This document shows, one piece after another, positions 31,797 through 42,409 of a stretch of DNA of 64,000 nucleotides. The notes below the pieces were generated by a model, which saw only the letters and a list, made by a program, of their open reading frames with translations, was not told where the DNA came from and did no database searches. The stretch is from Flavobacterium sp. Lineage in GTDB: Bacteria; Bacteroidota; Bacteroidia; Flavobacteriales; Flavobacteriaceae. Location of the stretch: assembly GCF_965262375.1 (NCBI RefSeq), contig NZ_OZ253527.1, forward strand, positions 1,644,706 to 1,708,705, given 5' to 3'. The position numbers and the translations under genes were made by a program. Positions within the stretch are counted from its first letter, which is position 1, and the number at the start of each line of letters is the position of its first letter.

Positions 31797-34652
31797 ATGC
31801 CTAAAGACACTTCTATTAAATCGGTTTTAATTATTGGGTCAGGTCCCATTATTATTGGTCAAGCTTGCGAATTTGATTACTCTGGATCACAATCTGCTCG
31901 CTCCTTAAGAGAAGAAGGAATCGAAGTTATCTTAATCAATTCGAATCCAGCCACCATCATGACCGACCCTTCTATGGCGGATCATATTTATTTAAAACCA
32001 TTAACTACCAAATCAATTATTGAAATCCTTAAAGCGCATCCGCAAATTGATGCTGTGCTTCCTACTATGGGAGGACAAACAGCTTTGAATTTGTGTTTAG
32101 AAGCTGAAGATAAAGGGATATGGAAAGATTTTGGAGTTAAATTAATCGGGGTAGATGTTAATGCTATCAATATTACCGAAGATAGAGACCAATTTAAGGA
32201 TTTATTAAATAAAATTGGAATTCCACAAGCACCAGCTAAAACGGCTAACTCTTTCTTAAAAGGAAAAGAAATTGCTCAGGAGTTTGGTTTTCCATTAGTT
32301 ATCCGTCCCTCGTTTACTCTTGGAGGAACTGGAGCGGCTTTTGTGCATAAAAAAGAAGATTTCGATACCTTATTAACACGTGGTTTAGAGGCTTCGCCTA
32401 TTCATGAAGTACTTATTGATAAAGCACTTTTAGGTTGGAAAGAATATGAATTAGAATTATTGCGTGATAAAAATGATAATGTTGTTATTATTTGTACCAT
32501 CGAGAATATGGACCCAATGGGAATCCATACAGGAGATAGTATCACAGTGGCGCCAGCCATGACATTATCAGATACAATATTCCAAAAAATGCGTGACATG
32601 GCAATGCACATGATGCGTAGCATTGGAAACTTTGCAGGTGGATGTAACGTACAGTTTGCAGTTTCACCAGATGAAAATGAAGATATAGTTGCCATCGAAA
32701 TCAATCCACGTGTATCGCGTTCTTCTGCATTAGCATCAAAAGCAACTGGATATCCTATTGCTAAAATTGCAACAAAATTAGCACTAGGGTATACCTTAGA
32801 TGAATTGCAAAATCAAATTACAAAATCAACTTCGGCTTTATTTGAGCCTACCTTAGACTATGTGATTGTAAAAATTCCTCGTTGGAACTTTGATAAATTT
32901 GAAGGTTCAGATAGAACTTTAGGTTTGCAAATGAAATCCGTGGGGGAGGTAATGGGTATTGGTCGTTCGTTCCAAGAAGCTTTACACAAAGCAACGCAAT
33001 CGTTAGAAATTAAGCGTAACGGTTTAGGGGCTGATGGTAAAGGATACAAAAATTACGAGCAAATCATCGAAAAACTTACACATGCAAGTTGGGATAGAGT
33101 TTTCGTAATTTACGATGCTATTGCTATGGGGATTCCATTGTCAAGAATTCACGAAATCACTAAAATTGATATGTGGTTTTTGAAAGAATACGAGGCTTTA
33201 TATTTGTTAGAGAAAGAAATTTCAAAATTTACTTTAGATACGCTTCCTAAAGAATTATTATTAGAAGCCAAACAAAAAGGTTACGGTGACCGCCAGATTG
33301 CACACATGTTAGGCTGTTTAGAAAGTCAGGTTCACACACTTCGTGATACCATGAACATTCAACGTGTGTATAAGTTGGTAGATACGTGTGCGGCTGAGTT
33401 TAAAGCGCAAACACCTTATTACTATTCTACTTTTGAAGCTGAAATTGAAAAAGCAGATGGTACAAAGTATGTGCATAATGAAAGTGTAGTTTCTGATAAG
33501 AAAAAAATTGTAGTTCTAGGTTCAGGACCTAACCGAATTGGACAAGGGATTGAGTTTGACTACTCTTGTGTACACGGGGTTTTAGCCGCTAAAGAATCTG
33601 GTTATGAAACTATCATGATTAACTGTAATCCTGAAACGGTTTCAACTGATTTTGATACTGCTGATAAATTATACTTCGAACCAGTTTTCTGGGAACATAT
33701 TTACGACATTATCCGTCATGAAAAACCTGAAGGTGTAATTGTTCAGTTAGGTGGTCAAACCGCTTTAAAATTAGCTGAAAAATTAAGCAAATACGGAATT
33801 AAGATTATCGGAACTTCATTTGATGCCTTAGACTTGGCAGAAGACCGTGGTCGTTTTTCAGAATTATTAACGGAGTTGAATATCCCTTTCCCTAAGTTTG
33901 GAGTTGCTGAAAACGCAGAACAAGCGGTTAAGTTAGCGGATGAATTAGACTTCCCATTATTGGTACGTCCTTCGTATGTATTAGGTGGTCAAGGCATGAA
34001 GATTGTAATCAACAAGCAGGAGCTTGAAGAGCACGTAATCGAGATTTTAAAACACATACCTAATAATAAATTGTTGTTAGACCATTATTTAGATGGGGCT
34101 ATCGAGGCAGAAGCAGATGCAATTTGTGATGCGGATGGTAATGTGTACATTATCGGTATTATGGAGCATATCGAACCTTGTGGTGTACACTCAGGAGATA
34201 GTAACGCTACCTTGCCTCCATTTAACTTAGGGGAGTTTGTTATGCAGCAAATTAAAGACCATACTGAAAAAATTGCAAAAGCATTAAAAACGGTGGGTCT
34301 AATCAATATTCAGTTTGCAATTAAAGATGATATGGTGTACATTATTGAGGCTAATCCACGAGCTTCTCGTACCGTACCATTCATTGCAAAAGCGTATGGT
34401 GAACCGTATGTAAATTATGCTACTAAAGTGATGTTAGGGGAGAAGAAAGTCACTGATTTTGATTTCAATCCACAATTAAACGGATTTGCTATCAAACAAC
34501 CCGTGTTCTCTTTCAATAAATTTCCTGGGGTAAACAAAGCTTTAGGGCCTGAAATGAAATCTACAGGAGAAAGTATCTTGTTTATTGATGACTTAAAAGA
34601 TGACCAATTCTACGAATTGTATTCAAGAAGAAAGATGTATTTAACGAAGTAA
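31797..34652 (+). CDS. carB: Carbamoyl-phosphate synthase large subunit
   Basis: GSGPIIIGQACEFDYSG, two ATP-grasp halves and GPEMKSTGE; 951 aa. Confidence 0.98.
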   Translation: MPKDTSIKSVLIIGSGPIIIGQACEFDYSGSQSARSLREEGIEVILINSNPATIMTDPSMADHIYLKPLTTKSIIEILKAHPQIDAVLPTMGGQTALNLCLEAEDKGIWKDFGVKLIGVDVNAINITEDRDQFKDLLNKIGIPQAPAKTANSFLKGKEIAQEFGFPLVIRPSFTLGGTGAAFVHKKEDFDTLLTRGLEASPIHEVLIDKALLGWKEYELELLRDKNDNVVIICTIENMDPMGIHTGDSITVAPAMTLSDTIFQKMRDMAMHMMRSIGNFAGGCNVQFAVSPDENEDIVAIEINPRVSRSSALASKATGYPIAKIATKLALGYTLDELQNQITKSTSALFEPTLDYVIVKIPRWNFDKFEGSDRTLGLQMKSVGEVMGIGRSFQEALHKATQSLEIKRNGLGADGKGYKNYEQIIEKLTHASWDRVFVIYDAIAMGIPLSRIHEITKIDMWFLKEYEALYLLEKEISKFTLDTLPKELLLEAKQKGYGDRQIAHMLGCLESQVHTLRDTMNIQRVYKLVDTCAAEFKAQTPYYYSTFEAEIEKADGTKYVHNESVVSDKKKIVVLGSGPNRIGQGIEFDYSCVHGVLAAKESGYETIMINCNPETVSTDFDTADKLYFEPVFWEHIYDIIRHEKPEGVIVQLGGQTALKLAEKLSKYGIKIIGTSFDALDLAEDRGRFSELLTELNIPFPKFGVAENAEQAVKLADELDFPLLVRPSYVLGGQGMKIVINKQELEEHVIEILKHIPNNKLLLDHYLDGAIEAEADAICDADGNVYIIGIMEHIEPCGVHSGDSNATLPPFNLGEFVMQQIKDHTEKIAKALKTVGLINIQFAIKDDMVYIIEANPRASRTVPFIAKAYGEPYVNYATKVMLGEKKVTDFDFNPQLNGFAIKQPVFSFNKFPGVNKALGPEMKSTGESILFIDDLKDDQFYELYSRRKMYLTK

Positions 34653-34782
34653 GATTCGATATATGTAAAACGGCTGTTTAGAGAAACAGCCGTTTTTTTG
34701 TTTTATACATATTTTACATTGGATAAACTAAATTGAAATGGAGTTGCATTTGCGCCAAGTTCACTCCTTGTTATGACAATAT
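34396..34782 (+). repeat. Left copy of ~390 bp direct repeat (carB 3' end + terminator + 3' end of convergent gene)
   Basis: Aligns by eye with 42022-42409. Confidence 0.95.
34667..34699. terminator. Bidirectional terminator after carB
   Basis: AAAACGGCTGTTT-AGAG-AAACAGCCGTTTT. Confidence 0.88.
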
Positions 34783-34865
34783 AGTAGTTGTAATTCCTAA
34801 AAAACTGATTTTCTGTATTGATGTCTAGCTAGTAAAGTAGCAATAATAAAAGTATCTTCTTCTTA
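34703..34865 (-). pseudogene. Decayed 3' remnant of the gene intact at 42330-42953
   Basis: Minus strand reads DINTE/ISFLGITTT/IVITRSELGANATPFQFSLSNVKYV* versus intact NINTELSLLGIASADIVMTGGGPGANATPFQFSLTNVKYV*, with frameshifts. Confidence 0.8.
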
Positions 34866-35636
34866 AGAAATTAACTCTAATAAAATTAGCAAAATTAAAT
34901 CAAAATGGGTTTTTTATGTATGTGAAATGCCTATTCGTAAGATAAATGGAGGGAGTATTAGTTAGAAAATGTATTTTTGAAAATATTTTAGACTAATATG
35001 AAGATCAGGGTTATTATAGTAGATGATGAGATGCATGCTCGAAACTTTCTTGCAAAATTTTGTGAGCGTTATTACTCAGGCTTAATTGAAGTTGTGGATG
35101 CGTGTAATTCTGTAGAAACTGCCGTGCGTTCTATTAAAAAATATCAGCCGGATGTTGTTTTTTTGGATGTGCAAATGCCCGATGAAAATGGTTTTGAACT
35201 TATTAAGTATTTTGATAAAATAAATTTTGAAATAATTTTTACTACAGCATATAAAGAGTACGCAATTCAGGCTATTCGAAATAGCGCTTTAGATTATCTT
35301 GTAAAACCAATTAATGCTGACGATTTTAAGATAGCAATTTCTCGTTTTGAGACCAAGAAGGAAACAAAAATTTCATTTGATCGCTTTAAATTGCTAACTG
35401 AAAATATAAATAATCAATTTGTTGATAAACAAAGAATTGTATTTCCTACCAAAATTGGGTTTGAAGTAATACAAGGAAATTCTATTGTATACTGTAAATC
35501 AGATGGGTCTTATTCGAATGTGTGCACGATAGATAATGAATATTTTACTTCAAAATCGTTTAAAGAAGTTGAAGAAATGCTTGCAGATTCTAGTTTTATT
35601 CGTGTTCATAGAAGTTATTTGGTTAATAAAAATTTT

Positions 35637-41994: not shown

Positions 41995-42021
41995 GTGATT
42001 TTTACTGAAAAATTATTTCAG

Positions 42022-42278
42022 ATGGTGAACCGTATGTAAATTATGCTACTAAAGTGATGTTAGGGGAGAAGAAAGTCACTGATTTTGATTTCAATCCACA
42101 ATTAAACGGATTTGCTATCAAACAACCCGTGTTCTCTTTCAATAAATTCCCTGGGGCAAACAAAGCTTTAGGGCCTTAAATGAAATCGACTGGTGAAAGT
42201 ATTTTGTTTATCGATGATTTGAAAGATGATCAATTCTACGAATTGTATTCGAGAAGGAAAATGTATTTAACGAAGTAA
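42022..42278 (+). pseudogene. carB: Duplicated carB 3' fragment
   Basis: Encodes GEPYVNYATKV..SRRKMYLTK with GAA>TAA at 42177-42179; no 5' part. Confidence 0.95.
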
Positions 42279-42409
42279 GATTCGATATATGTAAAACGGC
42301 TGTTTCTCTAAACAGCCGTTTTTTTTGTTTTATACATATTTTACATTGGTTAGACTGAATTGAAATGGAGTTGCATTTGCGCCAGGACCACCTCCCGTCA
42401 TCACAATAT
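42022..42409 (+). repeat. Right copy of ~390 bp direct repeat
   Basis: Aligns with 34396-34782; terminator loop reads CTCT. Confidence 0.95.

Follow-up and report, generated by a model that had tools for sequence, protein, structure and literature searches.

How does a 7.2-kb block of genes come to lie between a housekeeping gene and its convergent neighbour, enclosed by two copies of the junction that it separates, with no recombinase at hand? We address this question for the island behind carB, the gene for the large subunit of carbamoyl-phosphate synthase, in a stretch of 64,000 nucleotides from Flavobacterium sp. (NCBI RefSeq assembly GCF_965262375.1, contig NZ_OZ253527.1, positions 1,644,706 to 1,708,705 of the forward strand), which we call the window and number from its first letter. 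The answer that we consider probable, judging from the sequence, is that a recombinase-free insertion anchored by homology displaced the resident carB 3' end.

The structure of the locus is defined by a direct repeat at 34396-34782 and 42022-42409 (387 and 388 bp, start-to-start spacing 7,626 bp). Taken as a single alignment, the two copies span 388 columns with one gap and are 92% identical; divided into sub-blocks, 34396-34695 and 42022-42321 are 94% identical, and 34693-34782 and 42320-42409 are 87% identical. Each copy begins with the final 257 nt of carB, continues through a bidirectional terminator and extends 130 nt beyond carB into the 3' end of its neighbour, a convergent gene of 207 aa. 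Between the copies lie 7,239 bp of cargo (34783-42021) with a GC content of 29.3%, compared with 35.0% and 35.9% in the flanks. On the left, carB is intact (31797-34652, plus strand, 951 aa, Pfam domains CPSase_L_D2, D1 and D3). On the right it persists as a displaced 3' remnant of 257 nt in the same orientation (42022-42278, plus strand), which lacks the 5' part of the gene and carries an in-frame stop (GAA>TAA at 42177) and a V>A change. The reverse holds for the neighbour, a member of a widespread family of unknown function, which is intact on the right (42330-42953, minus strand, 207 aa) and is reduced on the left to a 3' remnant of 40 codons with a decayed distal part (34706-34825, minus strand; 23/40 identical by tblastn). 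An earlier sequence-only reading had described a duplication of about 390 bp bracketing 7.2 kb, with carB whole only to the left and the neighbour only to the right, and both the alignment and the open reading frames (ORFs) at 31797-34652 and 42330-42953 bear this out. The duplication thus flanks the insert, and only the inner copies of the two genes are truncated, the outer ones being whole; this is the layout of a Campbell-type integration. The window equally shows the order expected of 3'-end displacement, namely an intact carB, new DNA and an orphan 3' fragment, here a single one.

A self-comparison of the genome revealed almost no other dispersed direct repeat spanning the 3' end of a gene, and for this reason we do not attribute the repeat to chance. 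A collapsed or misjoined repeat in the assembly is barely credible, because the copies differ at about 31 positions, the flanks are unique, the genome is a single contig of 3.14 Mb with 99.99% completeness, and the same architecture recurs in many independent assemblies including complete genomes (e.g., G191 among the genomes compared below).

The differences between the two copies are distributed in a way that speaks to their origin. Within the carB part, the first 127 nt show no difference and the next 130 nt show 14 (Fisher p = 9e-5). Twelve of these 14 are synonymous third-position changes, and the other two, the V>A change and the stop codon, are both in the right copy. Decay of the right copy in place would give about 40% synonymous changes, and the observed excess is significant (binomial p = 6e-4). 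The carB ends are therefore two alleles that diverged in working genes of two lineages, and the right piece ceased to function only recently. The terminator with the rest of the intergenic sequence contains no point substitution; it differs by one T indel and by a 4-nt loop that is reverse-complemented between the copies. The 13-bp stems are the same on both sides and the left hairpin (34667-34696, loop AGAG) is the exact reverse complement of the right one (42293-42322, loop CTCT), the mark of a small inversion mediated by the hairpin. Beyond the terminator, the last 51 nt of the neighbour gene show three differences, and identity falls to about 60% over the next ~70 nt of the left remnant, where most changes are from GC to AT. 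This left remnant has lost the family-wide motif SLLGIASADIVMTGGGPG and has kept the lineage-specific tail FQFSL(T/S)NVKYV.

It is common for integrative elements to insert at the 3' end of a conserved gene and to rebuild it with a copy that they carry. Among integrase-borne islands and cis-mobilisable elements (CIMEs), ICESt1/CIME at the 3' end of fda in Streptococcus thermophilus is an example from a protein gene. The carB locus shares with ICESt1/CIME the direct repeats of a conserved gene's 3' end on either side of the cargo, and arrays that arise by accretion. Unlike ICESt1/CIME, where a tyrosine recombinase acts on short and fixed attachment (att) sites, the carB repeats are long and variable and no recombinase accompanies them. 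Five matches to the tyrosine-recombinase family PF00589 were found in the 3.14-Mb genome, the nearest lying beyond the window at a distance of 45 kb from the island, and a Pfam search of the cargo ORFs gave no match to any recombinase family; serine recombinase families were not searched genome-wide. The sequence-only reading had called the island integrase-free, and this stands, with no tyrosine recombinase within 45 kb and none among the cargo ORFs. A tRNA-based att site was rejected, as no tRNA or tmRNA gene was found in 20000-56000.

To place the locus in the context of its genus, the repeat was used as a query against 400 further species (G numbers denote their genomes), and the 31 species with two or more matches were re-examined. 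In at least 17 of about 380 other Flavobacterium species the second match shares contig and strand with an intact carB and lies 0.9-5.5 kb downstream of it. The repeats in these species consist of the carB end, mostly together with the terminator, their right ends falling between 4 nt before and 122 nt past the stop codon. They are 83-620 nt long and their divergence is spread over the full length. The left edges of the remnants, counted from the stop codon, vary widely: -574 in G219, -202 in G374, -172 in G331, -141 in G130, -110 in G069, -95 in G227, -86 in G136, -79 in G014, -75 in G407, -73 in G191, G355, G006 and G206, and -57 in G412. G383 (-122 and -51) and G378 (-101) have two remnants each and form displacement arrays. 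The overall range is thus -51 to -574, and an edge at -256 is also among those tabulated. What lies behind carB is variable too. In the first nine species, whose cargo was classified by reading ORF translations with no family search, we found a PIN toxin with a small partner gene, a zeta-toxin-like ATPase, a SIR2-like protein, an AAA ATPase, an MscS channel, a kinase/regulator pair, peptidases and lipoproteins. Across 38 species, the ORF that comes next after carB belongs to 30 unrelated families, which makes the spot a hotspot of gene content. The sequence-only reading had proposed the carB 3' end as a reusable landing site and a comparison of carB-downstream regions as its check; that comparison, with differing cargo and variable repeats in 17 or more other species and two arrays, supports the proposal.

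Synonymous bias in the remnants is also seen elsewhere in the genus: it applies to 57/67 differences in G219 (p = 4e-14), 13/14 in G130, 6/6 in G014 and 4/4 in G407. The G219 remnant has, moreover, its own diverged version of the terminator, with compensatory changes in the stem. Elsewhere the differences show no relation to codon position, indicating older remnants that have decayed. Some second matches are of a different kind. In G144 nothing but the terminator part of the query is matched, on both strands, and in G271 no carB coding fragment was found in the stretch of the distant second match. Contig C24 of G355 (37.7 kb) has four matches to the carB end and was considered as a multi-copy element; this was rejected, the contig being a frameshift-ridden duplicate with degraded carB pieces. 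It looks like an uncorrected assembly duplicate and is a source of false extra matches. A search of the literature on carB-linked islands in Flavobacterium returned nothing specific.

These comparisons bear on the possibility that the island is the remnant of an integrase-mobilised element, or a cis-mobilisable element moved in trans, that targets the carB 3' end and whose integrase has been lost or is encoded elsewhere. A 3' copy supplied by such an element and kept under selection could, on general grounds, also diverge by synonymous changes alone, and several edges fall close together (-73 in G191/G355, G006 and G206, -75 in G407 and -79 in G014). The -73 edge (…|TGTTTATTGA…) is exact in three separate branches (G191/G355, G006, and G206) that carry three different cargoes, and it may represent a hot spot of junctions or chance, the estimated probability of the coincidence being about 0.06. 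Against an integrase stand the spread of the edges from -51 to -574, with no short att core at a fixed target position, and repeats of 83-620 nt diverged over their whole length. Furthermore, the window repeat runs 130 nt past carB, a repeat in G378 described below holds non-carB sequence, and no recombinase was found in or near the island nor, judging by the translations, among the 19 cargo ORFs of the nine species (the cargo ORFs of six further species were listed but not inspected). Given the variable edges, the long repeats and the lack of a recombinase, we regard an integrase, including one acting in trans, as very unlikely.

Once formed, the displaced ends can persist. The zeta-like cassette is present in five species that are scattered over the carB tree, and its identity of 79-87% tracks that of carB at 81-90%, indicating that it is old and mostly vertically inherited. 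The terminator of its remnant is 82-98% identical to the resident terminator of the same species, compared with about 50% to the remnant terminators of distant species, from which we conclude that the two evolve in concert by gene conversion. The left edge of the remnant erodes over time (G378 -101, G227 -95, G407 -75, G191/G355 -73). In G378 a second cassette of 2.75 kb, which includes an MscS channel gene, is flanked by a 314-nt direct repeat that is 91% identical (oriented positions 2143-2456 and 5208-5518) and takes in 116 nt from the start of the zeta-like gene and the region upstream of it, together with the carB remnant and the terminator. Because this repeat includes non-carB sequence, the process follows local homology and no site specific to carB. 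A second target is found in the same genome outside the window, at C1:1490283-1494239, where the last ~95 nt of typA/bipA and its terminator are repeated 2.1 kb downstream as a 126-nt repeat, 94% identical, around a single gene for a 620-aa secreted protein. It is the sole further convincing gene-end repeat in the whole-genome self-comparison.

Such persistence raises the alternative that the window, too, holds an old, vertically inherited structure, that is, an ancient duplication with its cargo, maintained by conversion, in which part of carB was later replaced by another allele and the right copy is the fossil of the former one. The co-divergence of the zeta-like cassette and its remnant with carB in five species, with a terminator that tracks the resident copy, agrees with such a history, as does the strong, GC-to-AT-biased decay of the distal neighbour stub, which implies age. 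The allelic import would, however, have been limited to the last 130 nt of carB, which is unusually short; the right carB piece has only two non-synonymous changes and was recently functional; and of the 400 other species sampled, 399 lack the cargo. We therefore consider this alternative unlikely.

The homology-anchored insertion that we favour would have proceeded as follows. DNA from a related Flavobacterium lineage would have brought its own functional carB end and terminator, an already decayed neighbour stub and the five-gene cargo, and would have recombined with the resident carB via sequence homology. The junction at its far end would have formed 257 nt short of the resident stop, through illegitimate joining if the fragment was linear or through a single crossover if it was a circle, and the resident 3' end, terminator and neighbour gene would have been pushed 7.6 kb downstream, where the carB piece would remain as a pseudogene fragment. 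Gene conversion may later have made the two copies alike over the first 127 nt and in the terminator region; the loop of the hairpin would have flipped, and a copy of IS1595 would have inactivated the regulator gene of the cargo. What we infer in this scheme is the direction of transfer, whether the incoming DNA was circular or linear, and in which order the later events took place.

The sequence-only reading had proposed one specific form of this event, a strict Campbell integration in which circular, non-replicating DNA with ~390 bp of homology and the cargo enters by one RecA-mediated crossover and can be excised again by the reverse reaction. A repeat on each side of the cargo with intact outer genes is indeed the product of a single crossover. 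The array in G378 speaks for this form: its two remnants share their edge and a 60-nt upstream flank, and the 314-nt repeat fits a circle entering an existing repeat, or an unequal crossover. The identical 127-nt block could be heteroduplex repaired beside the crossover. Yet a crossover between copies that are 11% diverged should leave differences on both sides of it, and the left 127 nt are identical; the cargo has no function in replication, transfer or circularisation; and the end product is the same as that of a linear homology-anchored insertion, which needs fewer assumptions about a circular carrier. What stands of the earlier proposal is a homology-driven event with no integrase, and what does not follow from one crossover is a run of 127 identical bases next to a block that is 11% diverged. 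As neither the linear nor the Campbell model alone predicts the identical block, we rate the general class of homology-anchored insertion as probable and its strict Campbell form as possible, at clearly lower confidence.

Several observations weigh against a homology-anchored insertion in general. First, the repeat is a mosaic of an identical 127-nt block, an 11%-diverged 130-nt block, a near-identical terminator and a distal stub of ~60% identity. One event cannot give four blocks so unequally diverged, and at least one later gene conversion must be assumed. Second, neither an empty site nor a donor was found among the genomes compared: upstream of the repeat the nearest carB is only ~82% identical, and the nearest neighbour protein is 65% identical. 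Third, the recurrent -73 edge, with its estimated chance probability of ~0.06, hints at a preference for a site. Finally, as regards the entry of the DNA, natural competence has not, to our knowledge, been established for Flavobacterium.

The same distance to relatives limits how the mosaic can be polarised. The left copy is closer than the right to the carB of every other species, as expected of the copy under selection, the nearest being only ~82% identical. In a test for a hybrid repeat the mosaic was evident, and the relatives are too distant to assign its blocks to donor or recipient; the same polarising comparison, applied to the repeat in G219, likewise decided for neither copy. The neighbour family comprises 1573 homologues of about 206 aa in Flavobacterium, Fluviicola, Acidovorax and others, with a best non-self identity of 65% and no Pfam match for the 207-aa protein. 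Its closest homologues (65% and 63% identity) are not beside carB and offer no empty-site reference, and an exact-sequence lookup of the protein for sister strains returned no record. In one member of the family (P0002, 354 aa) two copies are fused in tandem.

The cargo holds five genes and an insertion sequence. Its first gene encodes a response regulator with a receiver and a LytTR domain (5' part at 34998-35639, plus strand), which is split by an IS1595-family insertion sequence (IS) of ~965 bp (~35637-36600, minus strand; transposase at 35650-36543, with DDE_Tnp_IS1595 and Zn_ribbon_IS1595 domains) flanked by a AAAATTTT-type target duplication. The frame of the regulator resumes past the IS at ~36601-36716; with the IS removed it is ~252 aa long and ends just inside the kinase gene, and the intact orthologue in G056 has 250 aa. 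There follow, all on the plus strand, a sensor histidine kinase of 994 aa with Reg_prop repeats and a LytS-type His_kinase domain (PF06580; 36702-39686), a DUF1232 membrane protein of 137 aa (39813-40226), and two predicted secreted proteins with signal-peptide-like N-termini, of 380 aa with no Pfam family (40199-41341) and of 216 aa (41344-41994). The sequence-only reading had named these genes and their AT-richness correctly and had missed the IS1595 element in the LytTR gene. Five other copies of the IS are found in the genome at 97-99.9% identity; with six copies 97-100% identical, the element is probably active. The insertion has probably disabled the two-component system of the island, as the split gene suggests. 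The IS is a later passenger and not a border of the island: a composite transposon or an IS-mediated island was considered and rejected, since the single IS1595 is internal, has its own target duplication, and neither IS elements nor inverted repeats occur at both ends. A Pfam search of the cargo ORFs revealed no function in replication, transfer or circularisation.

Of the 400 other species sampled from the genus, only G056 was found to encode the 380-aa protein. There the module is syntenic (C20, positions 1-7200), with identities of 77% for the regulator, 64% for the kinase, 93% for the DUF1232 protein and 45-47% for the two secreted proteins. It lies near the start of the contig, immediately behind a 5S rRNA gene, with no IS and with one extra gene of 186 aa. 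A repeat search found no flanking repeat around it, and no mobility gene was found within 16 kb. The five genes form an accessory module that is rare and not intrinsically tied to carB.

How does the carB island compare with known systems? Displacement arrays at rhs, contact-dependent inhibition (CDI) and type VI secretion system (T6SS) effector-immunity loci have been attributed to homology-facilitated illegitimate recombination (Jackson 2009, Kirchberger 2017, PMC5361080). Like them, the carB locus has an intact gene, new DNA and an orphan 3' piece in the same orientation, with no recombinase and with a conserved part of the gene as the anchor of homology, and successive events build arrays. 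Unlike in those loci, where the variable 3' end (toxin tip plus immunity gene) is the selected payload, carB is a housekeeping gene whose 3' ends are functionally equal, the payload is unrelated cargo behind the terminator, and the carB remnant and terminator are kept near the resident end by gene conversion. Campbell insertion-duplication, as with suicide plasmids and in transformable streptococci, shares the homologous direct repeat with intact outer and truncated inner copies and is reversible by recombination between the repeats; the carB island differs from it in having no vector backbone, origin or transfer function, and in that its copies are diverged mosaic alleles. Hotspots free of mobile elements, with recombination in the core genes that flank them, have also been described (PMC5635113). 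As in these, a core gene borders the variable spot and the cargo is free of mobility genes. A double crossover in both flanks leaves no duplication, whereas at carB a piece of the core gene is left as a scar; one end of the event was therefore not a homologous exchange in the far flank. Taken together, 3'-end displacement, known from polymorphic toxin loci, occurs here at housekeeping genes of Flavobacterium, with arrays and with long-term conversion of the scar.

On a more speculative note, the carB 3' end and its terminator, and likewise those of typA, might serve as a standing platform for cassettes that needs no recombinase. With each acquisition a copy of the gene end and terminator would stay behind, and conversion would keep this copy matched to the resident one for long periods. 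Matched copies could then act as portable homology arms for adding, swapping and excising cassettes, conceivably even between species that share only carB. Such a platform would amount to an integron-like array run on the general recombination of the host, its cargo often of the toxin-antitoxin or defence type, and could include the site preference near -73. We put this forward tentatively.

Many hotspots of gene gain in bacteria have no recognisable mobile element, and the entry of DNA into them is mostly inferred from statistics. The event at carB left a readable scar, namely the displaced end of a housekeeping gene in which a second functional allele can be recognised. Together with the recurrence of such scars around cargo of the toxin-antitoxin or defence type, it offers a concrete and testable model of integrase-free gene acquisition in Bacteroidota, and it provides a simple search pattern for other genomes: a core gene that is intact and has an orphan copy of its 3' end farther downstream.

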